Made by a program: the position numbers and the translations under genes. Below are positions 2,611 through 64,000 of a stretch of DNA of 64,000 nucleotides, one piece after another. The number at the start of each line of letters is the position of its first letter. Position 1 is the stretch's first letter. The stretch comes from an uncultured bacterium. GTDB taxonomy: Bacteria; CSSED10-310; CALFER01. The notes beneath the pieces are model-generated. The model was not told where the DNA came from. It ran no database searches and was given only the letters and a program-made list of their open reading frames with translations. Location: positions 67,029-131,028 of the forward strand of contig CALFER010000038.1 of assembly GCA_937951895.1 (NCBI GenBank). Reading direction: 5' to 3'.

Positions 2611-5600
2611 TTAAAAGAATCCCCACTCACAGAAGTCATAATCCCCTTCCAGAACCGCGGCGTCTGTCCGGAGATGCGCGAACCAGAAGCGGATGCCGGT
2701 GAACGTTCCGAAGTCTCCCTGAGGCCATTCGAAGGCAAGGAAGTTTTCGGAGGAGAACCCCTGCGGTACGGTTCGGGTCTGGAAGGTCACATCGGGTGTA
2801 TATCCAGGCCAGAACCAGTATTGACCCAGAACATCCAGAATCACCCAGCGCTGGAGTTCGACCGGTGCGGATGGGTTGAACACCATTCCGTATACCGAGA
2901 ATGGATCGCCGGCAGGCGGAGTCGTCAGTTCATTGTAAGTATACATGCTCAGGCTCGTATCGACATCCACGAGAATCCGGTCGGAGGTCTGTCCGGTTCC
3001 ATCGAGCAACCAGGGGATCAGGGTCTGGATGACAGCGCCCGGATTTTCCATCGATTCGAGGGGGAAGGCGAGATACGCTGTGCGATACGGGCTGGATTGG
3101 CCGGCGCCGGGGTATCGGATTCCGCACGGATTGTTGGCGGCCTTGAATGGCTGGTCGTCATCGAATGCCTCCTGCATGTCCGGATAGTCGTCTCCGGGAC
3201 GGACCGGATTTCCGGATGTAAAACTCACGACGGCGTCTTCGCGAGGCACGAGATTATCCGGCCACCAGTCAAAATCGAGTTTTTTGTTGTAGGTGTTGAT
3301 ATCCAGCGCCTGATGGGTGCCGATCGTGAAAGGATCCGCCGTTCCGCCCATCACTTCCTGATAGTAATCATCGTGTTCGACCCCGGCGATTCTCAGGTAG
3401 TTGTAGATGAAATAATCCGCCAACTGATCCGGATTTCCGGGATCCGCGGCAGGGTTGATCCAGACCAGGTCATCGGTGTTGGCAGGGGGTTGATGGAGAC
3501 GGTACATGAGTTCATGGGCTGTAATCATCAGATTGCCGCCGGCGTCCAGATATTGAATCATGGGCGGGATCACATAGTTCAGAAGATCTTTCTTGCCCTG
3601 CCCGGTTTGTCCGGTGAACCACAATACAGCATCGTACTGCTTCAGATCGTCAAATGTCGGGAACGACAGATTCACGAGGGGTTCCCATGGATACGAAAAC
3701 TGCTCGGTCGCATCGGGATCGACTTTGGGCGTCGTGTTCCAGACCTCGAACGGAATTCCGGCGGTCGCGAGAGCATCGCGGACCGGTTGATCCAGACTTG
3801 TAGTCTTCCCCTGGTAGCGGTCATCATCCCAGAACAGCAACCGGGCGGGCGTTACACGGGTATGAAACCGATGCGTCACGGAAGCAGATTCCGCACACAC
3901 AAACGTGATCTCGAACTCTGCGTCGTGCTGCAGAGGCGTATTGGCGGCGAGATTGATCGTGAAGGGGGAAACCGGTTGCGAGATCGCGTTCGTCTGGGTT
4001 GAGGGGTAGGATGCCGAGCCGTTGACGATGGAGACGTATGACGAGAGCGATGTGATGGTTGCGCTGATGGCGGTCGCCGGAGCGAACAGTGCGATCATAT
4101 CGACATTGAGCGATACCGTCTCACCCGCTTCCGGTCTGAAGTTGCCGTTACCTTGCCCGGAACCCTCGAAGACGGTCGCCCGGCGGACAGTCAATTCCGG
4201 ATCGAGTTCGGCCGTCATCGACGCGGGGACGTTGATTCGGCCGAATCCGGCATGGTAGTCGTATCCGGGGAATGACGCCTGATTGATGTCGACCGCTGTC
4301 GCGTTGATGCGATTCCGGATATCCGCGGGCGTGAACTCCCATCCGTTGGCACGCGCATATGCCACGAGCAGAGCAGCCTGCCCCGAGACATGCGGGCAAG
4401 CCATCGACGTGCCGACCCAGCCCCGGATCGCAAACTGTGTCATATCCGGGAAAGACCGGACTTTAATGATATTCTGGTAGATCTGATCCGTCGTTCCGCT
4501 CGAATCATAATCCGGTGAATCATATTGACCACTCGGTGCAATGACTTCGATCATCTGGCCGTACTGCGAAAAGTTCGTGACGGTTTCCGACATGGGATCC
4601 CCGGTGACAGCTGCGTTGTTGCTCGCGCCAACCGATACGACCGATTCGAATCCGGAGGGATACCCGACTCCGTAGAACACCGGATCCCACCCGCCGACAT
4701 CGCCGTCGTTCCCGGAACTTGCCGCGACGAACACACCGTGTTCGACCGCATACGCACAGGCCTCTTTCTGAACTTCCGGGCCCGCGCCCTGTCCGACGTA
4801 TCCCGAACCGAGACTCATGTTGATGACATCGGCGCCTTTATCAGCGGCATACAGAATCGCCGCGACCACATCATCCATATTGGATGTGCCATCCGGTCGT
4901 GCGGCTGTTTTCAGAATCATCAGTCGGCTTTCGAATGCCATGCCGACCGTCGACCTCATGTTCTCGGTTCCGCTGCCGTCATTGTTTGTGCTTTGGAGAA
5001 TCGTGCCGCTCACATGTGTGCCGTGACTGTCGTCATCGCTGGGGAACGGCGAGTCAAACACGAAGTTCCAGCCTTCATAATCGTCGATATAATCGTTCCC
5101 GTCATCATCGATCCCATTCCCGGGAGTTTCATCGGGGTTGGTCCAGATGTGGATGTTTTCGAAATCCGGCGCCTGAGCGAATTCAACGGGTTCGCCGTAA
5201 TGTTCCGTATCCGTCCATGTTTTGTAGGCGCATCCCGAGTCGATTACGGCAACGACCACATTGGGGTCACCGCCGTGCAGGGGGGGGGTGCTATCGAGAT
5301 CCCAGGCGGATTCCATACCGATTATCCGGAGATTCCAGAGGTGGTCGTTGACCCAGTACCAATCGTTCGGATTCCAGTTCAGCCTGAGATAATAGTTCGG
5401 GCACGCGCCCTGAATGCGCTCATCCGTCTGCATGCGTGCGATCAGTTTTTCGATTGTGCGCGGTTGATCTTCCATCACCTGAACCAGTACCCAGCCGATC
5501 TGAGGAAATGTCTTGAGAACACCTGCCCGATACTCGTCCAGCGCACCCGAGCACGCGTCGATCGATAACCCGGGATCGAACTTGATGAAGAGTTGTCCGG

Positions 5601-5718
5601 GAACAAAATGGATCCCCGGCTCGAGGTTTTTCAGAAGTGGTTCATGGCCGATTCGTGCGAATCCAGGCATGGACAGCATCGTGATCGCCAGTGAAACGAC
5701 AAGAATCGTGTGCTTCAT
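2611..5718 (-). CDS. Secreted subtilisin-like serine protease (S8 family) with long C-terminal extension ending in conserved C-terminal domain
   Basis: Signal peptide MKHTILVVSLAITMLSMPGFA. Catalytic triad motifs VAVIDSGC (Asp), HGTHVSGTI (His), GTSMACPHVSG (Ser). Start ATG at 5716-5718 with GGAGGG RBS upstream, shorter than the track ORF. The C-terminal 100 aa resemble the C-termini of four other secreted proteins in the window. Confidence 0.85.
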   Translation of the reverse strand: MKHTILVVSLAITMLSMPGFARIGHEPLLKNLEPGIHFVPGQLFIKFDPGLSIDACSGALDEYRAGVLKTFPQIGWVLVQVMEDQPRTIEKLIARMQTDERIQGACPNYYLRLNWNPNDWYWVNDHLWNLRIIGMESAWDLDSTPPLHGGDPNVVVAVIDSGCAYKTWTDTEHYGEPVEFAQAPDFENIHIWTNPDETPGNGIDDDGNDYIDDYEGWNFVFDSPFPSDDDSHGTHVSGTILQSTNNDGSGTENMRSTVGMAFESRLMILKTAARPDGTSNMDDVVAAILYAADKGADVINMSLGSGYVGQGAGPEVQKEACAYAVEHGVFVAASSGNDGDVGGWDPVFYGVGYPSGFESVVSVGASNNAAVTGDPMSETVTNFSQYGQMIEVIAPSGQYDSPDYDSSGTTDQIYQNIIKVRSFPDMTQFAIRGWVGTSMACPHVSGQAALLVAYARANGWEFTPADIRNRINATAVDINQASFPGYDYHAGFGRINVPASMTAELDPELTVRRATVFEGSGQGNGNFRPEAGETVSLNVDMIALFAPATAISATITSLSSYVSIVNGSASYPSTQTNAISQPVSPFTINLAANTPLQHDAEFEITFVCAESASVTHRFHTRVTPARLLFWDDDRYQGKTTSLDQPVRDALATAGIPFEVWNTTPKVDPDATEQFSYPWEPLVNLSFPTFDDLKQYDAVLWFTGQTGQGKKDLLNYVIPPMIQYLDAGGNLMITAHELMYRLHQPPANTDDLVWINPAADPGNPDQLADYFIYNYLRIAGVEHDDYYQEVMGGTADPFTIGTHQALDINTYNKKLDFDWWPDNLVPREDAVVSFTSGNPVRPGDDYPDMQEAFDDDQPFKAANNPCGIRYPGAGQSSPYRTAYLAFPLESMENPGAVIQTLIPWLLDGTGQTSDRILVDVDTSLSMYTYNELTTPPAGDPFSVYGMVFNPSAPVELQRWVILDVLGQYWFWPGYTPDVTFQTRTVPQGFSSENFLAFEWPQGDFGTFTGIRFWFAHLRTDAAVLEGDYDFCEWGFF

Positions 5719-5882
5719 ATCTGACCCTCCGTTTCCTGTTTTCTTTCTAGCGCACACATACCCCTTTGGCAAGATTCAGGGAAAAATTATACCGATGTTA
5801 AACCAATCTGACGCAGCCGGTATCGAATGGGTGGACAAGGAACGAGAACGTCCCCAACCAGATGGAGGTGCCAGTGAAACAC

Positions 5883-6440: not shown

Positions 6441-6471
6441 TCGACGCGCACAGATTCGGACCGGGACTTCC

Positions 6472-10795: not shown

Positions 10796-11095
10796 ATGGG
10801 CCCGATCTCCTTTGAAGAACGCTGCAAGGTTCCTATATATCTCAAGCTACGTCATTTTTGCAAGCCATCATTAGGCGACTATACAGGAGTCATGCCGATT
10901 CGTCAAGCGGGCAATTCGGCATCCGGCAGCCTGTTGTCAACCTGCGAAAATGCGTTTCCGAACTCTTGAGAAGCAAGCGTTTCCAATCCGCGACGGATTG
11001 ACAAAAACACGGATTCCATGATAGAATATTTTCTCGTTGCAGTGCACGATTCAAACCCATGTCCCATTGGTCGGTCCGCTCGAGGAGGTTTGGTC

Positions 11096-17252: not shown

Positions 17253-17993
17253 TTGATTGTGAGCCGAAAGGGAACGGAGACAAGTTTTTTTCTGGTCAGT
17301 CACCAGGCCAAGACCATTCGCTTGAACAAGCAGCAACCGACAACGATCGGAAGGGAAAAATACAACGACGTTGTGCTCAATGACCTGCTCGTGTCACGCC
17401 AACACGCCGTGATCCGATGGGAAAAAGATCATTTTCTCCTGAAAGACCTCAAAAGCCGCAACGGTACCTACCTCAACAATGATCGGATCGAACAGGAAAA
17501 GCTTCAGGACGGGGATCTGCTGAAGATCGGAGCATACGAGTTTTACGTCAGGGCCGCGACGCCGATGGATGTCGAGAAGCATTTATTGCAGGAACGGGTT
17601 CGGATGGCGAGTCAGGAGACGATGGTTGATGCGGATCTCGGAATCCGCTTCAGTGATTCTGGTTTCTCCGGTACACTCTCCAGCCTCGCTCTTCTGGAAG
17701 TCATTCAGACGTTGAATCAATGTCTGAAAACGGGTGTGCTTACGATTGTCGGAGATGCCGCGGTCGGGATGGGGCATGTCTATTTTGAGGATGGAGAAAT
17801 CGTCCATGCTCAGGTGGGGAACGAGGATGCCTTTTCGGCCCTGATGGTGTTGATGTATCTCACCGATGGACAATTCGAATTTCAGAATGATGTCCCCAGT
17901 CCCGTGAAGACGATCAATCAACCAACCATGGGTATTCTGCTCGAAGCCTGTCGCCGAAAAGACGAAGCGCACCGGGAAAACACCCGATCCTGA
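17253..17993 (+). CDS. FHA-domain protein with C-terminal DUF4388-like domain
   Basis: TTG start preceded by GGGGGG. FHA: TIGREKYNDVVLNDLLVSRQHAVIRWEKDHFLLKDLKSRNGTYLN. C-terminal GTLSSLALLEVIQTLNQCLKTGVLTI...FEDGEIVHAQVG matches the DUF4388 pattern. Confidence 0.7.
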   Translation: MIVSRKGTETSFFLVSHQAKTIRLNKQQPTTIGREKYNDVVLNDLLVSRQHAVIRWEKDHFLLKDLKSRNGTYLNNDRIEQEKLQDGDLLKIGAYEFYVRAATPMDVEKHLLQERVRMASQETMVDADLGIRFSDSGFSGTLSSLALLEVIQTLNQCLKTGVLTIVGDAAVGMGHVYFEDGEIVHAQVGNEDAFSALMVLMYLTDGQFEFQNDVPSPVKTINQPTMGILLEACRRKDEAHRENTRS

Positions 17994-18012: not shown

Positions 18013-20277
18013 TCAGTCGTCTTCTTCGTTATCCGAGTGGAGCATCAGGTCGGCCAGACCACATGTTGCCAACTGACGCTCGATTTCCTGAACGGTTTCA
18101 TAGCGATCATCGGGACCCTTTTCGAGACATTTCATGATGAGATCGTTCATCCATCGCGGGAGATCCGGTTGGCGTTCGATGGGTGGGATCGGTTCTGTTT
18201 CGACCTGATCCACCAGGACTTTGAACGAATCGGGGCTCGTGAAGGGCGGTGATCCGACACATGCTTCGTACAGAATCGTTCCGAGCGAATAGATATCGCT
18301 GCGTGTATCGGTCGATTCCCCCTTTGCCTGCTCGGGACTCATGTATTCAGGTGTCCCGACGACAAAGTCCGAATCGCTGTCTTTGGTGAGTCCCATGACC
18401 ATCGCGATCCCGAAGTCCACGAGTTTGACGATGCCGGCATCGTTGATCAGGATATTCTGAGGTTTGATGTCGCGATGGACGATACCCAGGCGGTGAGCGG
18501 CCCAGAGGCCGGCGCAGACCTGCGTCATGACCTGGATGACGGTGTCGATATCGAAGGTTTTTTCGGTGCGGATCATCGCCTTCAGATCCCGGCTCGGGAA
18601 GAACTCCATCGAGATATACAGAAGGTTGTTCACCTTTTCAAAATCGTACAGTTGCACGACATTGTCGTGATGGACTTTGCGTGCGAGATTGACTTCCTGT
18701 TTGAATCGGTGAATCATTTCAGAATCGTTTGCGTATTTGGGCTTGAGGACTTTGAGAGCGACTTCGTTGGACAGTTCCTGGTCGAATGCCCGATACACGA
18801 CGCCCATTCCGCCTGCCCCGACCCGCTCACGAATGACGTACCGTTCCGCCACGATCGATCCCGCCGCGAACTGATGCGGGAACGTGGTCGTCGGGCGCGT
18901 CCTGCCGTCCCTTGCAACGTGTGCGAGTTGGGAGAGTTTGGTCCTGACCTGTCGATAGCCCAGATCGAACGCCGAAATTCTCTCGAAGATCTTCACCGCG
19001 CGTTCCGGTTGTCCCCGGGATTCGAATCCACATCCCAGTTCGTAATACACATCGATGTTATCAGCTGAGACTTCCTCTTCGAGGAGGTATTTCAGGTAGT
19101 TATCGTATCCGAGATCAAAATTGCCGCGGCGGAGAAACGCCTGGCCGAGCAGATTGCGAATAGGGACCGTGCGACTTCCTTGTGACCAGGCATTTTGCAG
19201 AACCTGGATAGCCAGATCGAGGTTATTGAGCTGGAGATACAACTGGCCGGCTTTATAGGGTTCGTTCGCCAATGCGTACAGATCGGCAGCTTTATCGTAT
19301 TCACCCAGTTGTTCGCGAAGTTCCGCCGCCTGGTTGGTGTCGCCGAGTTGTTCGGAGAGAACCGCGGCATCGAGCAGGCGCCCGGCGCGCAGGAACATCT
19401 CGGCTGCTTTTCGCGGTCGATCCGTCAACCGATACATCTCCCCCGCTTTGGCAAACTCGCCCGATAGTTCGTACGCCTCCGCCGCGATCTTGAATTCGCC
19501 GCTGTCATCCGCCAGAACAGCCGCTTTCGAGAATTCGTTTTCCGACAGTAACTTCTGGATCTGCAGGAAACGGGCTTTGTTGATTTCCCCCAGTTCATTG
19601 TAAATCGAAGCCGCTTCTTCCCACCGGTTGACGGATTCGAGATACCGAGCGGCTTGCGCCAGATCACCGACAATCCGTGAGACGCGGACAGCTTCGTCGA
19701 TCTCACCGGCCCTGAAAAACAATTCCGCCGCTGTCTGATACTTCCTCAGTTGCTCATAAGCTCGGGCACACTGGACCGCAAGATCCTGTTTGATCAGACG
19801 TCCCGAGGCATCCGTTTTGTTCTCGTAATAGGGATTCTCGAGGATGCGCTCAAAACAGGCGATCACTTTGCCATACATCCCTCGTTCAAAGTAGAGTCGT
19901 CCCGCCCGGATGTAATCCTGAGCTTCTTCGAGCATGGTCGCCGCATCGGAAGTAGCATCCGCAAGCATGTACATTTCAGCCGCAAGAAGTGGAATGCCGG
20001 CTTCCTTGTACATCATTCCCGCCTGATAGTAGTCCTTGATCTCCTTGAACATCTCGGCGGATTTAGCATACTGCCCCGCTTTGGCGAAATGCCGTGCCGC
20101 TTCCTTGTTGCGACCGAGCCATTCGAGGAGCGGGGCGGAGCGATGATACGCGCGGACCTTGAGATACATATCGAGAGCTTTTTCAAATTCACCGGCCGCC
20201 CGGAACAAATCACCGGCATCCAGATATTCTCCGCGCTGTGCCAGTTTCTGAGCTTCCTTGATGTTTCCGTGCGCCAT
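18013..20277 (-). CDS. TPR-repeat protein fused to C-terminal Ser/Thr protein kinase
   Basis: About 450 aa of TPR-like A/Y/L-rich repeats, then a kinase domain: RVGAGGMGVVYRA, ALKVLKP, HRDIKPQNILI, DFGIA, GTPEYMSPEQ. Confidence 0.85.
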   Translation of the reverse strand: MAHGNIKEAQKLAQRGEYLDAGDLFRAAGEFEKALDMYLKVRAYHRSAPLLEWLGRNKEAARHFAKAGQYAKSAEMFKEIKDYYQAGMMYKEAGIPLLAAEMYMLADATSDAATMLEEAQDYIRAGRLYFERGMYGKVIACFERILENPYYENKTDASGRLIKQDLAVQCARAYEQLRKYQTAAELFFRAGEIDEAVRVSRIVGDLAQAARYLESVNRWEEAASIYNELGEINKARFLQIQKLLSENEFSKAAVLADDSGEFKIAAEAYELSGEFAKAGEMYRLTDRPRKAAEMFLRAGRLLDAAVLSEQLGDTNQAAELREQLGEYDKAADLYALANEPYKAGQLYLQLNNLDLAIQVLQNAWSQGSRTVPIRNLLGQAFLRRGNFDLGYDNYLKYLLEEEVSADNIDVYYELGCGFESRGQPERAVKIFERISAFDLGYRQVRTKLSQLAHVARDGRTRPTTTFPHQFAAGSIVAERYVIRERVGAGGMGVVYRAFDQELSNEVALKVLKPKYANDSEMIHRFKQEVNLARKVHHDNVVQLYDFEKVNNLLYISMEFFPSRDLKAMIRTEKTFDIDTVIQVMTQVCAGLWAAHRLGIVHRDIKPQNILINDAGIVKLVDFGIAMVMGLTKDSDSDFVVGTPEYMSPEQAKGESTDTRSDIYSLGTILYEACVGSPPFTSPDSFKVLVDQVETEPIPPIERQPDLPRWMNDLIMKCLEKGPDDRYETVQEIERQLATCGLADLMLHSDNEEDD

Positions 20278-20491
20278 AAACTCCCCAACTGCTTGAGTAT
20301 AGGCGTTTGGTGCGAGACGTCAAGATGCAGATACCCGATCCACGTCTGATCACACATCTCGGGTGCAGCCATCTTCCGGACTATTTTTTTTCCGCACTGG
20401 AATTTTCCATCAATTTGACGGAAAATCCAGCTGGGGGCATGGGATTCACGATCCGAGCGGCCGGCCGGAGATCCGGAGACAGGAGCGGCAC

Positions 20492-20875
20492 ATGGAGAAT
20501 CTGATGAAGCTATTGAACATCCAGGAGGGGAAAACAATCGAGGAACGCCGGGAAATCGAGCGCAAGCAGCTGACGAAGCCGATATCGGTCACGTTCAGCA
20601 TCGAGCACGAAGGCGAGATCACGGATATCACCAGCGAGGGAATCGGGATCAAATTTCATCCGCTCGGTACAGAAGCATTGAATGTCGGGCGGAGAGTTCG
20701 ACTGCATCTGAACATGAATGACCGGATCGTCAGTCTCCATGGGGAAATCCGCCGGATCAGCGAGAAATTCGGACACATCATTCTGGGCTTGGCTTATGAC
20801 CGTGACGATGTCGCCACGTTCAATCTGAGCCCATCCGACAAGACCGACCAGGATTCAGAGTCCCGGGATCGGTGA
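20492..20875 (+). CDS. PilZ-domain protein
   Basis: AGGAG RBS then ATG at 20492. RREIERKQ (RxxxR) and DITSEGIGIKF (DxSxxG) match the two c-di-GMP-binding PilZ motifs. Confidence 0.6.
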   Translation: MENLMKLLNIQEGKTIEERREIERKQLTKPISVTFSIEHEGEITDITSEGIGIKFHPLGTEALNVGRRVRLHLNMNDRIVSLHGEIRRISEKFGHIILGLAYDRDDVATFNLSPSDKTDQDSESRDR

Positions 20876-20876
20876 T

Positions 20877-23330
20877 TCATCTCGGTCCGAAACCGAATGT
20901 CCAGGAACTGATTCCATCCGGGCCACCGAGCAATTCGGTCAGTGAGGCGTTCATCATACCACCCCAGAAGGTGATCCCGTCCAGAGACGCATTGCCGGTA
21001 TCCGGCCAGTCGAACATGGGCAGAATCATGCAGTCGCTATGGCCATGGATCAGTGTGACCGGTTGCCAGTCCAGATCATGCGTCCATGTCGGATGAAACC
21101 AATATTCCGAGCCGATCTGGAGAATGACGAACAATGCGGCATCGACCGGAGTCGCGTGATCAGATCCCAGAGTGGCTTTCAGATAACAGGGATCACCCGG
21201 TGAGAATCGATGCGACGGCATCTCGAGGACAACACCGGTCACAGGTGCTGAAGGCGTCGGCAGAGTGGGAGGCGACAATTGCGTCGAGGCGTGGATGAAA
21301 GCGTCGATTCCGTATAAATCACCATCAACCACATGCAGCACATTCGATGAATCGATCACAGAATCGCTCCCGCTGGAGCAGTTTACTCGATCGACGATTC
21401 TTTCCGATGACCAGGTTCCGTTGTATTTGTAAAAGTGTTCAATTGAGCACTGATCGGTGGAAAACACTCTTTTATGAAACATAATATGCGGATTACCCTG
21501 AACATCGAAAACGAGATCCGGAAATTCGTAATAATCCCGGTTCGGAATCGCTTCGTATTCCCAGCCATAGGCAGTTCGTGTCATGAAATACAACGTGGGC
21601 CAGTAAATTTGCTGATAGACAATGCAAATCCTTCCCCCACGATCCAGTTCCATATCGAAGGCTTCCACCTCGGAACGATCCAGATCAACAACCCATCCGG
21701 ATTCGCTCCGGTAGAGGCATCTGAGGCTGGCGTCTTCCATTCTATGACTCAACCATGGAACTCCCTGTGCATCAATGAGCAGTTTTGTCGGGAGAGCATA
21801 GAATTCATATTCAGCGACCGGTTCGATCGTCCAGTTTTCACCTGTGTTATATGCATAATACGTCACATGTCGTGACTCCGGTGATCTCTGGTCGAAACTG
21901 ATGCCGATCGTGCCGTCCGGACCAACCGCAATGTTGGTTTCCGTACAGGGACCACCGGACATGAGAGTCTCAAATTCCCACCGTCCCGCGACCATACGCC
22001 CAAACTGAAGCGCTTCCTCACCCGCAATCACCATCACCGGTTGATCACCGGCCGCGATAGCTATCGAAGACTCCATTCCTTTGTCAGCCACGATCGTTGA
22101 ATTCCAATCGCCCGATAAATCTGTATCAAATGCAATATGGACAGGACAGGCAGAGTCACCCACAAGCGAGTGGCTGATATACAAATGATCGGATGAATCG
22201 ACAGCAAGTGACGGCAGGTATCCATTGATCGCAGAACAGGCGATATATTCTCCGGTCCAGGAATCATCATTCTGTTCTAGATACCGCAAGTCAGGATAGT
22301 TCTGGTATGCCAGGCGGAGCATCCCGGTTCCTCCTGACAACCAAGCCCTGCAAGGTGAGTTAAAATCAGTATCCAGATGCTCCTCGTTCCATATCGTTGC
22401 TTCGCGGTAGAAATGCGTTAATGCATAATCGGCGCCGAGAATGATCACATGTGCGTCTTCCCCGTCAATAACCATCGACAGAACATCTCGTGAGCCGCTG
22501 TAAAAAGGTTCATGGTACCAGGTTCCGCCCTCCTGATACGACAAATACATCTGATCCGCCGTTTCCGTGAAAAGCGCGTAAGCCACATACGGATTATTCG
22601 CACTGTCCAATGCAATCGCCCATGAGCCAACAAGCGGGCTCTGACCCACAGATTCAGTATTTACAACCATCCCCTCTGTACTCACCGTTGCGTAATAAAG
22701 TGTCTCCCGCGGTATGTACTTTACGTAAACCATTCTGATTACATCATCGCTTCCCATGGCTGCTTCTGCTGAATACGATTCGGAATCAATCAGTTGCGAT
22801 GTCCAGATCGAATCCATCCAAATCCCGTGCCGGAGTGAATTAGCACGGCCTCCGAACACCACATGCATGCGATCATTCGAATCGAACATACACGCGTAGA
22901 TCCTGTTGATCCTGTCGACATCCGTTTCCACGATCTCGGAATGCCACACCGCACTCTCCCGTTTGAAGACGCGGATGCCCATCGAATCGAAGCATATGAT
23001 ATGCGGAGTGTCACTCGAGTCAAAAGAAAGATGGATGTCACAAGCCGAGTCGGGCAAATCCGATACGATTTCAGATTGCCATTCATCGCCAACCCGTGAA
23101 AAGTAACTCAGAAAATAGCCCAATGTCCCCTCACGGTCAGAGAGTGCGATTGCTGCATGGAGTTGATTCTGATGATCGACCGCGAACATACTCACGATGT
23201 ACGAGTCCATAGCATCGGGTTTCCACAGCGTTTCGATTGTCCAGTCATGTGCGAACAAGACAGACCCGATCGACATCAGGATGAAGGACACCAACACAAT
23301 GCGATATCTCGAGCCAGCAACATTCACCAT
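20877..23330 (-). CDS. Secreted repeat (probable beta-propeller-type) protein, paralog 1, with conserved C-terminal domain
   Basis: GGAGG RBS and ATG at 23328-23330. Signal peptide IVLVSFILMSIGSVLFA. About 45-aa repeats of the type W..E.I....s...Ai..D..G.pHi.y. C-terminal block ...DAALFVILQIGSEYWFHPTWTHDLDW...ITFWGGMMNASLTELLGGPDGI is shared with four other proteins. Confidence 0.7.
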   Translation of the reverse strand: MVNVAGSRYRIVLVSFILMSIGSVLFAHDWTIETLWKPDAMDSYIVSMFAVDHQNQLHAAIALSDREGTLGYFLSYFSRVGDEWQSEIVSDLPDSACDIHLSFDSSDTPHIICFDSMGIRVFKRESAVWHSEIVETDVDRINRIYACMFDSNDRMHVVFGGRANSLRHGIWMDSIWTSQLIDSESYSAEAAMGSDDVIRMVYVKYIPRETLYYATVSTEGMVVNTESVGQSPLVGSWAIALDSANNPYVAYALFTETADQMYLSYQEGGTWYHEPFYSGSRDVLSMVIDGEDAHVIILGADYALTHFYREATIWNEEHLDTDFNSPCRAWLSGGTGMLRLAYQNYPDLRYLEQNDDSWTGEYIACSAINGYLPSLAVDSSDHLYISHSLVGDSACPVHIAFDTDLSGDWNSTIVADKGMESSIAIAAGDQPVMVIAGEEALQFGRMVAGRWEFETLMSGGPCTETNIAVGPDGTIGISFDQRSPESRHVTYYAYNTGENWTIEPVAEYEFYALPTKLLIDAQGVPWLSHRMEDASLRCLYRSESGWVVDLDRSEVEAFDMELDRGGRICIVYQQIYWPTLYFMTRTAYGWEYEAIPNRDYYEFPDLVFDVQGNPHIMFHKRVFSTDQCSIEHFYKYNGTWSSERIVDRVNCSSGSDSVIDSSNVLHVVDGDLYGIDAFIHASTQLSPPTLPTPSAPVTGVVLEMPSHRFSPGDPCYLKATLGSDHATPVDAALFVILQIGSEYWFHPTWTHDLDWQPVTLIHGHSDCMILPMFDWPDTGNASLDGITFWGGMMNASLTELLGGPDGISSWTFGFGPR

Positions 23331-23856: not shown

Positions 23857-24543
23857 TCAACTGACTACCCCGAGCCAATCCTTGAAGAGGAAGATGAAAC
23901 GGCCGATGGCCAGCGAAATACGAGCCATGACGGTGAGTCCGAAGGAAGCCCCGAATCCGATCATGACCATCAGAATACCGAAGTTGCTGATTGGCCTCAG
24001 AACACCCTTCTGTTCGGTCGAGAAGAAGAAATAGATCAGCGTGGCGAGTGTCGAGAGCAGGATGACGATGGTCCAGAAACCGGGCCAGAACTCGGCGAGC
24101 TGTGCGCGTGTCACGATGGACGCTTCGAGCTGCCGCAGGATGCCGGCTTCAAAGGATGCCGGAATCGAGATAGCGGTATAGTACCCCATCGTCAATCCGA
24201 TCGGGATCCGCACCATCCAGGAAATCTTCGGGATGAAGCGTGTGATGTACAGCGCACCGACCATCATCGGAAGAATGATGAAGAAGTTGGCATCGTTGAA
24301 GGGATTCAGCACCGCGGTGGAAAAACCGTCCTGTTTGACCATTTTTCCTGCATTCACCAGCGGATCGATCATCATCGGAACAACGACGTTGAAGTAGGTC
24401 AGAGTGATCGAGTAGCCGTTCGCGACGCCGATGTAGAGATGCTCGGCGATTCGATAAAGTGGATTGTCACGCCATAGAAAGGAGAAGATGGCGATAGTCA
24501 GGATGGCGGCATTCCAAGTCCAGAATTCGGTTGCGATGTTCAT
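23857..24543 (-). CDS. Polytopic integral membrane protein (about 6 TM), hypothetical
   Basis: Start MNIATEFW at 24543 with GGAGGGGAG RBS. ATGA overlap with the upstream gene. Hydrophobic throughout. Confidence 0.6.
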   Translation of the reverse strand: MNIATEFWTWNAAILTIAIFSFLWRDNPLYRIAEHLYIGVANGYSITLTYFNVVVPMMIDPLVNAGKMVKQDGFSTAVLNPFNDANFFIILPMMVGALYITRFIPKISWMVRIPIGLTMGYYTAISIPASFEAGILRQLEASIVTRAQLAEFWPGFWTIVILLSTLATLIYFFFSTEQKGVLRPISNFGILMVMIGFGASFGLTVMARISLAIGRFIFLFKDWLGVVS

Positions 24544-25445
24544 ACTCCCCTCCGATTTTCGTGCCGGCGCTGCATGAAGTAGCAGACATTGCCCAGAATC
24601 ACCATGAGGATGATGGCGATATGTGTGGTCGACTGAGCACTCATACCTTCGCATGCCATCCGGCGTTCCTGATCCGAAAACTTCTCCTGAACAAGTTTTT
24701 CGTATTCCGCGGCGCCTTTCATGCCCTCGATCATGCCGGTGAGTTGTCCGGAGTCGAGATACGGGTAGAAGTCCGCGACAGACACGGCCGTGACACCCGC
24801 TGTGACTTTGATGCCGTAGCGAGCCTGCGCGTACGCCACATAGGTGATGGGCAGTGAGTTCGCCGCGATCGATGCGATCATGTCCATATCGCGGTAACTC
24901 TTGATGTTCGTCATCATCGGCTGAAGATTCAGATCATTCCCGTAGAAATCTTTCGGAAATACATCGAAGATGTTTTCACCCAGACCCAGAATCGGAACGA
25001 TGGGAGGGGGTTTCCATCCGAGGAACACATAGTCGCGACCGTAGATGATCCGTTCTTCATCGGTCGTAGCGCGATTGTTGAATTCGCTGACTACCTGGTT
25101 AAAGGCCTGTTCGGCCAATCCGAGCGAATTGGCGTAAAGGCACATCGCCAGCACCTTGATACGGCGGTGGAAACTATGACGGAGCAGTGACACGAGCATG
25201 GGGTAGAGTTCGGGCTGATCCTGCGGGCTCAGATCCGCCGAGATCAGCATGGCGTTGTGTTCTTTGGGGAATTTTTCAACTGCATCGAACAATGCCTGGG
25301 TGGTACGTTCGGAAACACGAATCGGGAGATCGAACGGGAAGATGATCGGGATGATCATGACCAGCGCGACGATGACATAGATCACACGCCGGTCGACACC
25401 CATCATCTTCTGCCAGACAGTCTGAATTTCGACTCGGTTGCTCAT
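24540..25445 (-). CDS. Bitopic membrane protein (N- and C-terminal TM helices flanking about 230-aa extracytoplasmic domain), hypothetical
   Basis: TM VIYVIVALVMIIPIIF near the N-terminus and THIAIILMVILGNVCYF near the C-terminus. ATGA start/stop overlaps with both neighbouring genes. Confidence 0.6.
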   Translation of the reverse strand: MSNRVEIQTVWQKMMGVDRRVIYVIVALVMIIPIIFPFDLPIRVSERTTQALFDAVEKFPKEHNAMLISADLSPQDQPELYPMLVSLLRHSFHRRIKVLAMCLYANSLGLAEQAFNQVVSEFNNRATTDEERIIYGRDYVFLGWKPPPIVPILGLGENIFDVFPKDFYGNDLNLQPMMTNIKSYRDMDMIASIAANSLPITYVAYAQARYGIKVTAGVTAVSVADFYPYLDSGQLTGMIEGMKGAAEYEKLVQEKFSDQERRMACEGMSAQSTTHIAIILMVILGNVCYFMQRRHENRRGV

Positions 25446-26368
25446 TCGTCACCTCCCAGCCACGCGCGTTCTATTCCGAAAATGATTTTGAAGGATGTCG
25501 CGACTGCTCCAAGACCGACGCCGATCATGATACCGCGCTTGGAAGCCATGTTGGGGACATCGAGAATCCACTGGCGGAGTTCATAGACACCGGGGATGTA
25601 GGCGGTTGCAAGCGGGATCTGGCCGAGCATGACGATGAACGCCGAAACCAGCAGAACACCGGCATGCAGGTTGCGCATACGGAATGCCCGGTAGGCCGCC
25701 GAACACATGTAGAAGGCGAGCATCGCAAACATCGTGGATCCGCAGGGGACCAGAATACCTTCAAAAAGCTGCTGAATATGGATCCTGAAATCTTTTTTAA
25801 ATGGCACCGGCTTGCCGGTGACCGGGCTGATCATTTCGAACTGAATCCCGTTGCGGCGCGCATTTGATGCCCGCAGTTCGATCTCGTCACGCAACGATGA
25901 TGCCGCATAGCGCGAAAGAGGGGCTTCGACGTTTGAAGGCAACGGCATCACCGCCCGGGCCGGGTCAACGAATTTATCGGGTGAGGCTTTGAACTGGCCC
26001 ATTTCCGCTTCGTTCTGGAACGCATATACCTGGCCATCGTGCGCAAGGAGGACCAAGCCACCGAAAATCGTCGGCAGGCTTTTTTCTCCGCGCACTCCGC
26101 CGAACAGACCGATGAAGGATGAAATGAAGAGCGAGACCAGTGTGACGTAACTGTATTGCCAGTACCGGGATTTGTTCCGGATCTTCACCATGTGGTGGAA
26201 GATGAGGCTTCCGAGACCCAGAATGATGGCGAAAGCGCCGACGATCAGGAGCAGTTTGTTCCGGAGCAGATTGTCGATTTCGTGGACGGATTCCTTGCCC
26301 ACGAAGACCGATATGCCGCCCCAGATCGCGAAGATGAACAACAAATACAAGGGCAGATTTCGTTTCAT
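25442..26368 (-). CDS. Integral membrane protein, hypothetical
   Basis: MKRNLPLYLLFIFAIWGGISVFV..., multiple TM segments at both ends. RBS GAGGTAGG upstream of the ATG at 26368. Confidence 0.6.
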   Translation of the reverse strand: MKRNLPLYLLFIFAIWGGISVFVGKESVHEIDNLLRNKLLLIVGAFAIILGLGSLIFHHMVKIRNKSRYWQYSYVTLVSLFISSFIGLFGGVRGEKSLPTIFGGLVLLAHDGQVYAFQNEAEMGQFKASPDKFVDPARAVMPLPSNVEAPLSRYAASSLRDEIELRASNARRNGIQFEMISPVTGKPVPFKKDFRIHIQQLFEGILVPCGSTMFAMLAFYMCSAAYRAFRMRNLHAGVLLVSAFIVMLGQIPLATAYIPGVYELRQWILDVPNMASKRGIMIGVGLGAVATSFKIIFGIERAWLGGDE

Positions 26369-26376
26369 GACCTACC

Positions 26377-27657: not shown

Positions 27658-27741
27658 GTGTGGTATGAACCTCCTCTTATTGTTTGAAACATGAATGAAT
27701 TTCAGTTTCCGAATAGGTCTCAGCACGTGTCGAAGAGCCTT

Positions 27742-28929: not shown

Positions 28930-29115
28930 ATCGATTCTCTCTCCGATCGCCGGAAACCGAGCGTCCGAATGTTCTGCAGTCCACACCGAAAGCGTAGCGA
29001 TAATATCTGAATCCAATCCTGTTTTCAAGATTGAATCGACTGCTGTCCAGGCAGCTCTTCCCTCTCCCGGTCATTATCGCTCTGCTGATGAGTTACGGAA
29101 CTCAAACGGGTTTGT

Positions 29116-33301: not shown

Positions 33302-35845
33302 CTACTCCGGACCGATGCTGAATTCCTGCTGCCAGATCGGACCCATAACTTCCGAGAGATCCGGGCTGAGAAGCGCGCCATAGAGATGAAGCGATTCGAT
33401 TGAGAAGGTGATCGGATCGGTGAAGTTGAAATGCAGGATCGGAACCGTCGTCCAGCCGGATGGGACGGAAAGGGGTTCGAAATCAAATGTCTGAGACCAG
33501 GAGGGGTGGAAGAAATACTCACCCTGTATCTCGAGGCATGAAACGACAACGGCGGAATCCAGCGGCTCGGAGGGATTACAGATTTCCAGATCGAACAGGA
33601 ACGGCATCCCGGACGTGAAATGCGTTGCATTCAGAGTGCCGGTGGTTTCCCATTCCGTGCAATTCGTCTGGTTATTCGGAGTATGCAGAATCACATCGCC
33701 TTCCATGATTCGTGTCTCCACACAGGCAGGTTTCATTCCCCCGGGGAGGCCGAGCAAGGCGGTTTCGACATGAATATTCGTTCTTCTCCAAACCAATTCG
33801 GGAGTCCACGCAGTGTCCTTCTTCCAGATGGTCATCGATTCCATGCCATCCCAACTACCGGCGGCAGAGGTCCACACCGTATCGTCTGCGGTCACCAGTA
33901 AGCCAGGCTGATACATCGTCATCATCGGCGCAATCTGCTCGAAGGACCAACCGGAGTTCGTCCGTGTTGCCTGGAATAGTGCATTGTATTGAATGAATGC
34001 TGCATGCGGGTATTCAAGATCATCGAATACCAGCTTTGCATTGGATAATTGATTGGTCGTGATATCGATCGTTCGAGTTTCAATTTCCCAACCCGAGTCC
34101 CCCAGTGTCCCATAATACATGGCGTTGACTTCCTGCGTACCGATGGATGTTCGACCGATGCTGAAGAAGTGAATCGTCCCATCCGGACTTTTTTCCAGAT
34201 CGACTGTGGCCCCGAATACTTGATCGTATTGCGAACCGAGATCGATCGGTTGATCCACCCATCCGTCGGATGTATAGAATGCATGTCGCAAGGCAACTCG
34301 ATTTTCCAGATCCGACTGGAAGTAGACAGCATGGGGCGATCCGTCCATCGAGTAGACGAGTTTTCGTGAACAAGTTGTTTCCGTCACATGTCGCACAAGC
34401 TGACGTGACCAAACTCCGTCTTTCCGTTCCCATAGAAACAGATCAAACGCGGATGTCCCATCAAAAAACTGAAGCAGTATTCCGATGTTTCCGAAGGGAT
34501 CCAGGGCGATATCGATTTCGTCCGTATTACTAACCCCGTCCTGAAGGGTATGGATCTGAGAAACATCAGACTCACGAGTCGCGATTTTCAATTGTGAAGG
34601 AGTGAGGAACGCACAATAAATCGTGCCGTCGGGATCGGCGCAGGCAGAGGCTGCGCGAATCTGTCCCCCTCCCGATTTAATGTGTGTCAATGTCCAACCG
34701 TCCGTTCCTTTCATCCCATAGTACAACATCTGATCATCTTCCACGTTTCGATGCACCACGATGGCGGTCTGCAGAAATCCCGATCGATCATATCCGGCAG
34801 CAATCGATCCCCCCTCACCGGTTTCAAGAATCCGAGTCTCGGAGTTCCAGTTGTCACCGACTTTCCAAGCCTGCACGAGATTCTGTCCGGATGAAAAGAA
34901 CAGGTGCGACGTGTCGGTCTCGTCGATCAGCAGTTCCGCTCCCGGATCCGATATCTCCATCACGCCATCGAAGGGGTACCCGCTGATCCATCCGGATGAG
35001 GTGCGCGTTCCGTAGAGCAGTCGAATCGGTCCGCCACGCGCGCCGTACGACGCGAGAACCCGGGGTTGTCCGGACGAGTCCTTCACGAGTCTGATCGAAG
35101 TGAACTTCTGGAAGATGTCGAGTGTCTCTATTGTTTCCGGGGTGCCGTTCGCCACAACCGGGCTCATGTAGTGCAACATGCAGGGACTCCCCGATGTCGC
35201 ATACCAGGCACTGAAGGCTATTCCGAGAACCCCCGGAGAGGTCTCCATCACGGCGATATTGTCAAAAAGGGTCGAAGCGGTGTACACAACTTCGGACTGT
35301 AAACCCGAAGGAGTGGTGTAAAGGTGCATCAGATCCACGTGTAACGACTCGATCAGCTTCATGTAAAACACATGAATGCACCCTGTCGAGTCCTTGAAAA
35401 AACCGACATTTTCAATGCATTGACCGGACGAATCGAGTGTCGCTGTATTCCAGGCCGAACCCGTGAATATCGCCAGTTTGACGGATCGGGTTGACAGATC
35501 GGTGAACACAATGATGGGATGATCCGAGTCGTCGAGCAGAGCACTCAGACCGGAAGCCGGAGATTCGCTGATCTCGTAAGTGATCCACTCGTTTCCCGAA
35601 TGATACATCGCCTGCACCGTGTCACCGGAGAGGAAAATCCAGGGATTGTTCTGAGCATCGAACAGGAGCGTATTCTGACCGGACAGTTCGAAGTTGTCCT
35701 GCCTGAAGAGATACTCTGAAGACCAGTTCGTCGAGGCCTGAACGTTTCCCATGATCGATGTCAGGCATGTAAACAGAACAAGGCAAATGAAAACGAACCG
35801 GGCATGCGTGGATGGAAATACACACAATCCCAACATCGATTTCAT
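33302..35845 (-). CDS. Secreted repeat (probable beta-propeller-type) protein, paralog 2, with conserved C-terminal domain
   Basis: AGGGAGG RBS then ATG at 35845. Signal peptide FVFICLVLFTCLTSIMGNVQA. The W..E.I repeat pattern recurs. C-terminal ...DSAVVVSCLEIQGEYFFHPSWSQTFDF...LHLYGALLSPDLSEVMGPI. Confidence 0.7.
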   Translation of the reverse strand: MKSMLGLCVFPSTHARFVFICLVLFTCLTSIMGNVQASTNWSSEYLFRQDNFELSGQNTLLFDAQNNPWIFLSGDTVQAMYHSGNEWITYEISESPASGLSALLDDSDHPIIVFTDLSTRSVKLAIFTGSAWNTATLDSSGQCIENVGFFKDSTGCIHVFYMKLIESLHVDLMHLYTTPSGLQSEVVYTASTLFDNIAVMETSPGVLGIAFSAWYATSGSPCMLHYMSPVVANGTPETIETLDIFQKFTSIRLVKDSSGQPRVLASYGARGGPIRLLYGTRTSSGWISGYPFDGVMEISDPGAELLIDETDTSHLFFSSGQNLVQAWKVGDNWNSETRILETGEGGSIAAGYDRSGFLQTAIVVHRNVEDDQMLYYGMKGTDGWTLTHIKSGGGQIRAASACADPDGTIYCAFLTPSQLKIATRESDVSQIHTLQDGVSNTDEIDIALDPFGNIGILLQFFDGTSAFDLFLWERKDGVWSRQLVRHVTETTCSRKLVYSMDGSPHAVYFQSDLENRVALRHAFYTSDGWVDQPIDLGSQYDQVFGATVDLEKSPDGTIHFFSIGRTSIGTQEVNAMYYGTLGDSGWEIETRTIDITTNQLSNAKLVFDDLEYPHAAFIQYNALFQATRTNSGWSFEQIAPMMTMYQPGLLVTADDTVWTSAAGSWDGMESMTIWKKDTAWTPELVWRRTNIHVETALLGLPGGMKPACVETRIMEGDVILHTPNNQTNCTEWETTGTLNATHFTSGMPFLFDLEICNPSEPLDSAVVVSCLEIQGEYFFHPSWSQTFDFEPLSVPSGWTTVPILHFNFTDPITFSIESLHLYGALLSPDLSEVMGPIWQQEFSIGPE

Positions 35846-43207: not shown

Positions 43208-43216
43208 ACCGGCCTC

Positions 43217-47773: not shown

Positions 47774-49465
47774 TCAGTTCAGGGAGAAGTCGAATGTCGC
47801 AACGTCACTGATCAACGCATCGATTCCGAGCAATCCCGGGGTGAACAGAGCGGCATAAAAATGCATGGGACCGAATGGGGACACCGCCGGCATGATGAAG
47901 TCTGGAATAATCGTTTTCGAGGAAACCCCTGCCGGGATCGAGATCGTTTCATGCGACAGTCCGTTTCCGATCGCCTGCCACGCGGGATAACTGAAAAACT
48001 GCCCCGCGACATCGAGCAGTACATACAGGTCCGCCGTCATCATCCCTCCCGGATTCTGCATCCCCAGCGTCAATCCGCACGGATCACCTTCACCGAAAGC
48101 CGTCGCCGGCATTTCCAGTTCGATATCGACAAGTCCTCCACCCCCCTGCGGCATCCTGAGACTCATCAGGAACATATCGACAACACCGGGATCGATTCCC
48201 CAATTCTCGGCCCACACCACCCGACTCCCGTCCCGCGTGATCGAGGCATGGGTCTCCTCCCAGTATTCAGCCGTCGTGTTGGGTGTTTTCGCCAGATAAA
48301 CGACTCGGGCGGCGGCGTCGTCGAGCGTCACGAGAACGATCGAGCGATCGAGCCAGTTTTTCTCGGGCAGAAAAGGCTGTATATACGTCGAAACAACGGC
48401 ATATCCCGCGTGATTGCACGAAACATGGACGCCCGATTGAAGTCCGTACGGCGAGCCGAAGTCGTAAAACAGACGGATGAGGGGAGTACGATTCGTCCCC
48501 TCGTAACTGCCTCCCGCTTCGAGGATCGGCTGAGTCGTGAAATCGATCGGGATCATGTCGATGAAATCCGTGTTGATGTTCTGCATGACGATCACCTCAC
48601 GCCCCTGCGCATCGAGTCCGACATCCGAATGCGCCGTCGCGTAATCCAGCCGGTGAAACTGCGTCAGATCGCGTGTCGCCATGACCAATCCCGCGAGAGG
48701 TCCCCCGTTGTTGTAATCGGATCCGATCAGAAGATAGTTGCCGTGCCATGACATGCCGACCCAGTCGATCAACCGTTCGTTTTCCTGAAGCGTGCGCACG
48801 CCGAGTGTCGATGCAGTCAAACGATCCCAGCAGAATACATACAGGGGTTCGTAGTCTTCCTGCACATCGCCCTGCAGCATCAAACCCCAGTACCGCATGT
48901 CGACGGACGGTTCACCCTCGTCTTTGCATGTGATCCGATAGACATTCGATGACGCGATCAGAGGGCCGATGATCGGATCCTGCGTGAAATCCACGATGAT
49001 CGTCAGATCACCGGTCGTCACGTCGAGCGTCACGATGCTGAAATCGCTGAATCCCCACAACAGATTTGCATTGGAGGGGTCCCAGCGCGGCTCGGACAGT
49101 GAGGGTTGGATCACGAGATTCGCGGTTGTATTGAAGGGGATCGAAGCCGTCGAGTAGACGTCCCAGCCATCCGATGGATCGAGCAGAATCCTGGACTGGT
49201 CGACGTTGAACGGATCGAATCGGGAGTATTCATGCCGCGAATGGGAGTAATCGCGCGTGGTGGCCTTGAACAGAATCGTCCCGAAGGACGGCTCGAAATA
49301 CTCGACGCCGGGATCCGGTTCGGCCAGGGGCACGAGCGGATATCTCGGGTTGTTGCCCGACAGGGGATCCGGAACTTCAGTGAACGCATAGTCCGGCGCA
49401 TACTCCAGCGCGAGCGTGACCGGAACAGCGATGAATACAATGCTCAGCACGATTGATCTCATCAT
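47774..49465 (-). CDS. Secreted repeat (probable beta-propeller-type) protein, paralog 3, with conserved C-terminal domain
   Basis: GGAGGA RBS then ATGATG at 49465. Signal peptide MMRSIVLSIVFIAVPVTLA. C-terminal ...DLYVLLDVAGQFFSYPAWQ...MHFYAALFTPGLLGIDALI. Confidence 0.7.
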   Translation of the reverse strand: MMRSIVLSIVFIAVPVTLALEYAPDYAFTEVPDPLSGNNPRYPLVPLAEPDPGVEYFEPSFGTILFKATTRDYSHSRHEYSRFDPFNVDQSRILLDPSDGWDVYSTASIPFNTTANLVIQPSLSEPRWDPSNANLLWGFSDFSIVTLDVTTGDLTIIVDFTQDPIIGPLIASSNVYRITCKDEGEPSVDMRYWGLMLQGDVQEDYEPLYVFCWDRLTASTLGVRTLQENERLIDWVGMSWHGNYLLIGSDYNNGGPLAGLVMATRDLTQFHRLDYATAHSDVGLDAQGREVIVMQNINTDFIDMIPIDFTTQPILEAGGSYEGTNRTPLIRLFYDFGSPYGLQSGVHVSCNHAGYAVVSTYIQPFLPEKNWLDRSIVLVTLDDAAARVVYLAKTPNTTAEYWEETHASITRDGSRVVWAENWGIDPGVVDMFLMSLRMPQGGGGLVDIELEMPATAFGEGDPCGLTLGMQNPGGMMTADLYVLLDVAGQFFSYPAWQAIGNGLSHETISIPAGVSSKTIIPDFIMPAVSPFGPMHFYAALFTPGLLGIDALISDVATFDFSLN

Positions 49466-63109: not shown

Positions 63110-64000
63110 TCACCAGGGTGAACAGGTGATATCGATCGAGTCGATTCCGTCTTCGCCGCCGATGATCCGAGACAGGTCCGGGGTCATGAGCGCGGCCCAG
63201 AATGTGAGGTGGAATTCGGTGTCGGTCGTGAATTCATGATCCAGTATCGTGTATTCCGCACCGTATCGCGCGGGGAGCATTTCGATCGGGTGCGCATGGA
63301 ATTCCTCGGTCCACGAGGGATAAAACCAGAACCGGTCGCCGAATTGCATCGCGACGACCAGCGCGGCAGGGATAGTGTCGAGGCTGTCGTGAAAAACGAA
63401 CGCTTTCAGCCAGCCGAGCGTAATCCAGTTGTCCGGATTCGCACATAATCGGACACCGGCTGCTTCAGGAGACATACTCAGAACCATCAGGCTGTTGCAT
63501 GGATATAAATCTCCATAATACAATGGGGTTACATTCACAGTGGTCGTGGCATGGATGCGATCGTCCTTGTCAATACACTGGTCGATATCGGAATATATGT
63601 ACATCGGTGCGGATTCCGTCTTCCGGTATCCATGTTCCATGAATCCGTAGGAATGAGTGAGCCCCTGATTCCTTCCCAGTAGATGAAAAAAACCTCGCTG
63701 ATCCAACTGAAGGGATACCTTGCTATAAGAATAAACATAACCTCGGTCCAGTACAAGCTTCGGATCCCCGGCAGATCGTTTCGTGTATCCGACTACAAGG
63801 TCGCCCCCTCCGGGACAGCCGCTGTGACTTGTATGAGCCAAGTGAATATCCCCATCCGGTCCCAGCATGAAATCCATATCCGAACTTTCGGAATGACAGG
63901 AGGATACTTCGGTGATCTGCCACTGTTCTTCAGTTCTGACTCCATAATAACTCAAGTTTCGCACCCCTGCATAAACAGTTGAGGATAAAGTATTTCGGCG
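63110..64000 (-). CDS. Secreted repeat protein, paralog 4 (5' end beyond window), with conserved C-terminal domain
   Basis: The ORF stays open to the window edge (the track's M at 63964 is a GTG codon and the frame continues upstream). C-terminal ...ALVVAMQFGDRFWFYPSWTEEF...HLTFWAALMTPDLSRIIGGEDGI. Confidence 0.6.
   Translation of the reverse strand, partial: RRNTLSSTVYAGVRNLSYYGVRTEEQWQITEVSSCHSESSDMDFMLGPDGDIHLAHTSHSGCPGGGDLVVGYTKRSAGDPKLVLDRGYVYSYSKVSLQLDQRGFFHLLGRNQGLTHSYGFMEHGYRKTESAPMYIYSDIDQCIDKDDRIHATTTVNVTPLYYGDLYPCNSLMVLSMSPEAAGVRLCANPDNWITLGWLKAFVFHDSLDTIPAALVVAMQFGDRFWFYPSWTEEFHAHPIEMLPARYGAEYTILDHEFTTDTEFHLTFWAALMTPDLSRIIGGEDGIDSIDITCSPW

Follow-up and report, generated by a model that had tools for sequence, protein, structure and literature searches.

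Five predicted secreted proteins of an uncultured CSSED10-310 bacterium share a C-terminal immunoglobulin-like domain

We analysed a stretch of 64,000 nucleotides (nt) from an uncultured bacterium (GTDB lineage Bacteria; CSSED10-310; CALFER01), positions 67,029 to 131,028 of contig CALFER010000038.1 in assembly GCA_937951895.1, hereafter the window. A sequence-only reading had singled out four minus-strand open reading frames (ORFs), here called A, B, C and D, as paralogues of one secreted repeat-protein family with a marked expansion in this lineage. All four ORFs are present, and their description as uncharacterised extracytoplasmic proteins is supported, but they are not four members of one family: C shares only its end domain with the others, and a fifth, enzymatic carrier of that domain, an S8 protease, had been overlooked. 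The window is best explained as encoding five Sec-exported modular proteins united by a C-terminal immunoglobulin-like (Ig-like), CARDB-like domain. The expanded unit is this modular end domain, found on many unrelated passengers, and not a repeat-protein family. The carriers and their parts are listed below, with end-domain E-values taken from the larger of two profile hidden Markov models (HMMs).

20877..23330, minus strand: A, 817 amino acids (aa); signal-peptide-like N-terminus, about 14 propeller repeats, short proline/threonine (P/T) linker, end domain
23250..23330, minus strand: A, signal-peptide-like N-terminus, aa 1-27, ...SVLFA/HDW, read by eye
21279..23243, minus strand: A, about 14 repeats of about 45 aa, aa 30-684; four-strand blades in the model, which would fit two seven-bladed beta-propellers
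20877..21272, minus strand: A, P/T linker and Ig-like end domain, aa 687-817
33302..35845, minus strand: B, 847 aa; signal-peptide-like N-terminus, divergent propeller repeats (about aa 41-715), end domain
33302..33694, minus strand: B, end domain, HMM E 6.9e-34
47774..49465, minus strand: C, 563 aa; signal-peptide-like N-terminus, unrelated body of about 410 aa, end domain
47774..48172, minus strand: C, end domain, HMM E 9.7e-36
63110..64000, minus strand: D, partial, 296 aa visible; end domain preceded by at least one significant propeller repeat
63110..63505, minus strand: D, end domain, HMM E 1.4e-19
2611..5718, minus strand: fifth carrier, subtilisin-like (S8) protease; fervidolysin-type prodomain, middle region without an assigned family, end domain
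2611..2985, minus strand: S8 protease, end domain, HMM E 4e-26; 90% identity to the copy in the sister genome GCA_964472395.1

All-versus-all BLASTP of the four proteins gave a significant common block in the last ~125 residues of each, with 25-30% identity. The shared C-terminal domain that the sequence-only reading had proposed is therefore upheld by both BLASTP and HMM, at about 125 aa and not the 100 aa first suggested. In the four-sequence database, most end-domain pairs scored between E 1e-6 and 1e-12, with C versus D at 0.005-0.009. An HMM of the four tails, run against all six-frame ORFs of the window, recovered the four and a fifth ORF, 2611-5772, at E 1e-12, which rose to E 4e-26 with the larger profile. 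E-values within the window ranged from 1e-12 to 1e-59 with the four-copy HMM and from 1e-19 to 1e-43 with the larger profile. The window end domains had no match in Pfam or NCBIfam at E<=1, and a search of PDB sequences with the end-domain profile returned no significant match. AlphaFold2, run on the A copy with 51 aligned sequences, modelled an eight-strand sandwich with a predicted local distance difference test score (pLDDT) of 96.7. The modelled fold is an Ig-like beta-sandwich matching PDB 3idu: Foldseek ranked CARDB first (E 2.4e-4), and the structural neighbours comprised CARDB 3idu, glycoside hydrolase (GH)-associated Ig domains, RbmA and carbohydrate-binding modules (CBMs). No sorting domain of the type IX secretion system (T9SS) was among the top structural neighbours listed. 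An outer-membrane barrel was also considered for the end domain and was set aside, the confident model being a sandwich.

Signal-peptide-like N-termini were readable in four of the five carriers. By eye, without a predictor, a positive n-region can be made out in those of A, B and C, along with a hydrophobic core and a small-x-A motif, and each of these genes has a Shine-Dalgarno-like site. In A, AAGGAGG lies 5 nt 5' of the ATG. The open frame of B extends to 35881; its ATG at 35845 is preceded by GGGAGGA at 7 nt, and this start is backed by the syntenic ortholog P0039, whose first residues, MKSML, are identical. The frame of C extends to 49612; its ATG at 49465 has TGGAGGA upstream and is backed by the database protein P0015, which has the same length (563 aa) and the same N-terminal sequence. 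D is cut by the window end, so that its N-terminus, signal peptide and ribosome-binding site all lie beyond the window; the signal-peptide-like N-terminus and Shine-Dalgarno-like site, first proposed for every copy, can be read in A, B and C. In the S8 protease ORF (2611-5772), translation probably begins at the ATG at 5718, which has ACGGAGGG upstream. The C-termini of the five carriers (...FGFGPR, ...FSIGPE, ...FSLN, ...CSPW and ...WGFF) are all part of the globular domain, with no hydrophobic helix, and a tripartite signal of the PEP-CTERM or LPXTG type (motif, transmembrane helix, basic tail) is absent from them.

The end domain belongs to a large family. We searched 1.84 billion representatives of 50% identity clusters with a 10-sequence profile and obtained 2,432 representatives at E<=1e-3, of which 1,881 reached E<=1e-10, in proteins of 112-1,392 aa. 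This exhaustive search was used in place of word-indexed homology searches with the domain alignment, which gave just 6 and 11 short proteins. Position and linker statistics cover the 153 top hits, and passengers were surveyed with Pfam in 70 carriers. The domain ended within 5 residues of the C-terminus in 147 of the 153, and the 40 residues N-terminal of it were enriched in proline (16% versus 6% elsewhere) and threonine (18% versus 8%). An N-terminal hydrophobic stretch was present in 78 of 88 full-length carriers. The commonest passengers were Beta_helix (13), Chlam_PMP (6), NosD (6), FG-GAP_3 (5) and Peptidase_S8 (4), accompanied by Kelch, peptidases C1, C11, M1 and M6, FGE-sulfatase, cohesin and transglutaminase, while the tail domain was covered by no Pfam family in any of the 70. 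It thus appears to be a family unannotated in Pfam and NCBIfam. Its signature reads L.MP...[FY].PGD.C.L.....NPG ... L.V.LDV.G.[YF]WF.P.W ... DY ... G ... IIP.F.WP ... F.GA ... W.FG.G, with at least 80% aromatic residues in twelve alignment columns, the YWFWPxW motif included. The cysteine of PGDxC (profile column 28) is conserved in 73% of 152 members, without a conserved partner cysteine; A and C have it, and B, D and the S8 protease do not.

At three loci, all in metagenome-assembled genomes (MAGs) of CSSED10-310, the domain is instead N-terminal and adjoins the signal peptide, with a P/T linker and then the passenger after it:

L010, 5860-7404: carrier with N-terminal domain
L013, 5851-8676: carrier with N-terminal domain
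L014, 553-1923: carrier with N-terminal domain

Their passengers are two FGE-sulfatase domains with MAM, a CpeT-like domain, and a body without an assigned family.

Genomes were scanned with a 7-sequence alignment, taking one genome per GTDB species and only loci with the peptide pattern [DER]YWF[WY]P[SGR]W, so that the taxonomic picture is a lower bound resting on a single pattern. The 26 confirmed loci came from five MAGs of candidate division CSSED10-310, two MAGs labelled 'uncultured bacterium' and one chromosome labelled Candidatus Saccharibacteria (OZ246411.1, 844 kb, 39% GC). The last encodes a 678-aa carrier with very long P/T linkers (L017, 4390-6423), which could be due to horizontal transfer, to mislabelling or to a family that is more widely distributed. 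On re-scanning with the HMM, single loci proved to have several carriers, as many as five within 12 kb. The 64-kb window has five copies, and the parts of MAG GCA_964472395.1 that were sampled have at least 21. The literature found on CSSED10-310, a genome announcement, describes it as Gram-negative by prediction and as a sister phylum to Acidobacteriota; it contains no description of such a domain.

The passengers in the window are of different kinds. A profile of the ~45-aa repeat, made from remote homologues only (P0002-P0008) and iterated, was run against all six-frame ORFs of the window and matched only A (2.7e-53), B (5e-26) and D (4.6e-6), with no match in C. Nine repeats of A are individually significant and 14 W..E anchors are readable. 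With the end domain removed, A and B still matched each other (phmmer E 6e-6 to 9e-5; BLAST 30.4 bits versus 18.6 +/- 2.1 for shuffles), while either of them against C gave shuffle-level scores. What is visible of D without its end domain (165 residues) was marginal against A and B, and its N-terminal part matched an A-like protein, P0017, at E 1e-4. The ~410-aa body of C has no relative in Pfam, NCBIfam, PDB sequences or other carriers. Because both the repeat profile and the body comparisons exclude C, the common build with ~45-aa repeats that had been proposed for all four proteins is limited to A, B and D.

We modelled the structure of A with AlphaFold2 from a 12-sequence alignment. The model was all-beta, with four-strand groups over aa ~46-318 and ~348-670 and a separate sandwich at aa 699-814; its pLDDT was 69.9 and its predicted TM score (pTM) 0.47. 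The DSSP strand list of this model contains about 13-14 four-strand groups, with a low-confidence stretch at aa 320-347. Foldseek against the PDB returned the multi-propeller proteins DDB1 and Elp2 and the seven-bladed Photorhabdus lectins PLL/PHL, and one half of A aligned to PLL2 with a TM score of 0.68 normalised to the target. The remote homologues have 7, 7, 13, 13, 14, 14 and 14 repeats, counts that fit a seven-blade unit. The bodies of A and B are thus consistent, with moderate confidence, with about 14 divergent blades of ~45 aa each, arranged as two seven-bladed propellers. The sequence-only reading, which had guessed at beta-propeller blades and named Foldseek on predicted structures as a check, is borne out to that extent for A.

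Pfam has no dedicated model for the propeller repeat. A just exceeded the cut-off of BNR_4 (PF15892; 27.8 bits, cut-off 27.3) over one blade only (aa 216-273, profile 208-266 of 272), B, C and D did not match it, and the homologues P0007 and P0085 scored 31-37 bits on their last blade only. Pfam searches with the remote propeller homologues and the C body gave only weak BNR_4 and SBBP matches. The Asp-box SxDxGxTW is absent from the blades; the repeats read D-S-x-[DGN]-x-P-H-[IV]-x-[YF], then W..E.

Judged by 88% DNA identity and synteny over ~14 kb, the window organism is a close relative of the organism behind GCA_964472395.1, and in the comparison of the two the propeller bodies stand out by their divergence. 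The genes flanking B are 94-98.5% identical in amino-acid sequence (FabH 98.5%, LemA 97.8%, a 497-aa ORF 97.2%, B12-radical SAM 96%, M48 94%), with 0.12-0.33 synonymous substitutions per site (dS) and a ratio of non-synonymous (dN) to synonymous divergence (omega) of 0.03-0.12. B and its ortholog P0039 are 62.6% identical overall. The signal peptide (aa 1-40; 85% identity, dS 0.11), the first two 50-residue segments (88% each) and the end domain (86%, dS 0.24) are well conserved, whereas the propeller region has 56.6% identity, dS 1.35, dN 0.33 and omega 0.24. Synonymous divergence that is 4- to 10-fold higher in mid-gene only points to recombinational allelic or cassette replacement, or to old balanced alleles, and indicates that the divergence of the B propeller is not simply relaxed constraint. 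A differs still more from its sister copy (35% identity over aa 1-617, 54% over aa 634-816), beside flanking genes at 96.4% (kinase), 96.3% (FHA protein) and 87% (FAD oxidase). The S8 protease is 93% identical overall, 96% in its catalytic domain and 90% in its end domain, on a DNA background of ~86%. Since this carrier is conserved and A and B are not, the hypervariability belongs to the propeller passengers and not to carriers generally. A diversity-generating retroelement was rejected as the cause: the window has no reverse transcriptase, and the divergence spans the whole propeller and includes synonymous sites.

Some irregularities were seen at these loci. The positional counterpart of A (L032, 1522-3971; JGI 3300028622) is read as two genes in different frames, of 644 and 172 aa with a 4-nt overlap; the gene there is a frameshifted pseudogene, or else the assembly is in error. 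Upstream of A, the window and the sister contig are no longer syntenic. Between the kinase gene and A, ~550 nt of the window (20325-20876) have no sister counterpart, the gap there being 98 nt; they hold a 170-aa plus-strand ORF scoring 22.0 bits for PilZ, just below the cut-off of 22.5. Beside the S8 protease, a 245-aa minus-strand ORF (5787-6524) has no family match and is 64% identical to the sister sequence over 140 aligned residues, versus 88-93% for its neighbours, and may either evolve fast or not be coding at all.

It had been suggested that A to D are recent paralogues of one repeat-protein family that expanded in this lineage. A, B and D do have repeats and the end domain in common, and all four genes lie on the minus strand within 64 kb. 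This reading is nevertheless largely refuted and we regard it as highly improbable, as the body of C is unrelated, the end domain also occurs on the S8 protease and on dozens of further architectures, and A, B and D are mutually only ~20-25% identical. A and B are each matched by a gene at the same position in the sister genome, which makes their duplications old. Nor is the likeness a matter of composition or chance. Pairwise identities of 20-30% are low enough to raise that suspicion, but the E-values in the window reach 1e-59, thousands of database matches have conserved motifs in common, shuffle controls set A-B apart from noise, and the domain model is very confident; we consider this explanation refuted, with practically no chance of being correct.

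What the end domain does is suggested by its company. We give an even chance to its being a retention or anchoring module at the cell surface or in the matrix. Carriers would first be exported by Sec, after which the domain, on its flexible linker, would serve as a common retention or sorting module, comparable in its anchoring to S-layer homology (SLH) domains, dockerins or the C-terminal domains (CTDs) of T9SS cargo. Propeller passengers might then be presented as lectin-like binders, with bodies that face the ligand and are swapped or diversified fast between close relatives while signal peptide and anchor module stay constant. That the domain works at either end makes it resemble a binding or anchoring module (SLH, dockerin, CBM) more than an obligate C-terminal translocation signal, and its occurrence next to the signal peptide agrees with a binding module whose position does not matter. 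One more protein of the window bears on this point. A 1,062-aa beta-helix protein (56510-59698, minus strand; Beta_helix, NosD, DUF1565) has a long P/T-rich linker followed by ...PVPTSGPIGIGFLLLTLSFLLGGGLIFRKG, an ending that combines a hydrophobic helix with a basic tail and stands, like a PEP-CTERM/LPXTG-type tripartite signal, in the place of the end domain; no NCBIfam model names this hydrophobic tail. The same kind of linker with another ending suggests that end domain and membrane-anchor signal occupy equivalent positions, and that the two endings are alternative ways to hold a passenger at the envelope. Several observations weigh against the overall picture. ORF clustering at the 26 loci found no conserved partner or receptor gene beside the carriers, only sulfatases and a C1 peptidase recurring; confidence in the propeller model is only moderate (pLDDT 69.9, pTM 0.47); the hyperdivergence could be non-orthologous replacement and not selection on a surface protein; and the Saccharibacteria-labelled carrier means that the family is not confined to one phylum.

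Two other functions were considered for the domain. It could be a T9SS-CTD-type secretion signal, recognised by an outer-membrane translocon and then cleaved or exchanged for a lipid or glycan anchor, and its place at the very C-terminal end of 147 of the 153 hits, its Ig-like sandwich of T9SS-CTD size, its many copies per genome and its diverse cargo with N-terminal signal peptides, including many proteases, beta-helix and adhesin-like proteins, would all suit such a role. We think this unlikely, given that the T9SS sorting models of Pfam and NCBIfam (TIGR04183, PF18962) are unmatched at E<=1 in A-D and that these families are not among the 25 listed for the 70 carriers; no T9SS gene was seen among the genes of the window, and the three carriers with an N-terminal domain would be intolerable for a C-terminal translocation signal. 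Alternatively, the domain could act like a CBM and direct its passengers toward an environmental polymer instead of the producer's own surface. Its structural neighbours include a dextranase, GH2, the porphyran-binding CBM 8wae and the Wzt carbohydrate-binding domain; its twelve aromatic columns with YWFWPxW, its P/T linkers and its placement at either end are typical of CBMs or in keeping with them, and sulfatases and peptidases are among the neighbouring genes. However, the passengers are mostly proteases, beta-helix/PMP, FG-GAP and Kelch proteins, with no glycoside hydrolase among the 25 listed families (12 more are unlisted), and a single substrate is unlikely to suit all of them, so that we hold this, too, to be doubtful. 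A more far-reaching reading, which we offer as speculation with a low probability, is that CSSED10-310-like bacteria might have a secretion or surface-display pathway of their own, hitherto undescribed, for which the domain is the address tag. It would do a job like that of T9SS-CTD/PorV or PEP-CTERM/exosortase while having no sequence relationship to them. It would then handle dozens to hundreds of cargo proteins per genome, and the propeller cargo would be hypervariable surface receptors, kept diverse by cassette-like recombination while the signal peptide and the tag on either side remain constant.

The remaining genes of the window include another type of secreted or surface protein that is without the shared end domain, of 957 aa (11018-13891, plus strand), with three lamin-tail domains and a 'choice-of-anchor X' domain (39 bits, cut-off 25). 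Flanking the A region are two Ser/Thr kinases of the eukaryotic type, one of them TPR-fused, and an FHA-DUF4388 protein (12-2528, 17253-17993, 18013-20277). Upstream of A, an apparent operon (23857-29028, minus strand) encodes two paralogous DUF6754 proteins with 69% mutual identity, then three membrane-protein-like ORFs (265, 301 and 308 aa) without a family match. Beside C (41967-47712, minus strand) are two multihaem cytochromes (Cytochrome_cB, c7/MtrC-like motifs), a cytochrome b561-type protein, a split pair of sulphur-transport proteins and a rhodanese, which suggest periplasmic or extracellular electron transfer or sulphur metabolism.

A profile and a signature are now available for a large family that neither Pfam nor NCBIfam annotates and that comprises at least 2,432 clusters at 50% identity. 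As much of the secretome predicted for a rare uncultured phylum is marked by this family, that secretome becomes searchable, and a testable anchoring or sorting module is nominated. The constant ends and hyperdivergent propeller body, among neighbours that are 93-98% identical, point to strain-level variation in proteins that are likely surface-exposed, in an organism known from metagenomes only.

Both modular Ig-like end domains and variable surface proteins were already well known, and no general principle is changed by these findings. A close parallel is the type A CTD of the T9SS (TIGR04183/Por_Secre_tail) in Bacteroidota and related phyla, also a small Ig-like sandwich, nearly always at the extreme C-terminus, and likewise carried in many copies per genome by highly diverse signal-peptide-bearing passengers (proteases, adhesins, beta-helix proteins). 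The end domain differs from it in lacking a sequence match, in being larger (~115-125 aa) and in being sometimes N-terminal. CARDB (PF07705; PDB 3idu, Pyrococcus furiosus PF1109) has the same fold at 6-10% identity; its Pfam model matches none of the window proteins at E<=1 and is missing from the 25 families listed for the 70 carriers, and the end domain has a signature of its own (MP...F.PGD.C.L, L.V.LDV.G.YWF.P.W, F.WP, F.GA, W.FG.G). On the passenger side, the Photorhabdus PLL/PHL lectins and BNR_4/sialidase-like proteins are built, as A is, from ~45-aa four-strand blades, but PLL/PHL and BNR_4 proteins have 6 or 7 blades where about 14 are counted in A, and the repeat motif of A, W..E.V....s.alD..g.PHi.y, contrasts with the Asp-box SxDxGxTW of BNR_4/sialidase-like repeats. 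SLH domains, dockerins and CBMs are likewise modular, joined by flexible Pro/Thr linkers at either end to many unrelated catalytic or binding passengers; they differ from the end domain in fold and sequence, and their receptors are the secondary cell-wall polymer, cohesin and polysaccharide.

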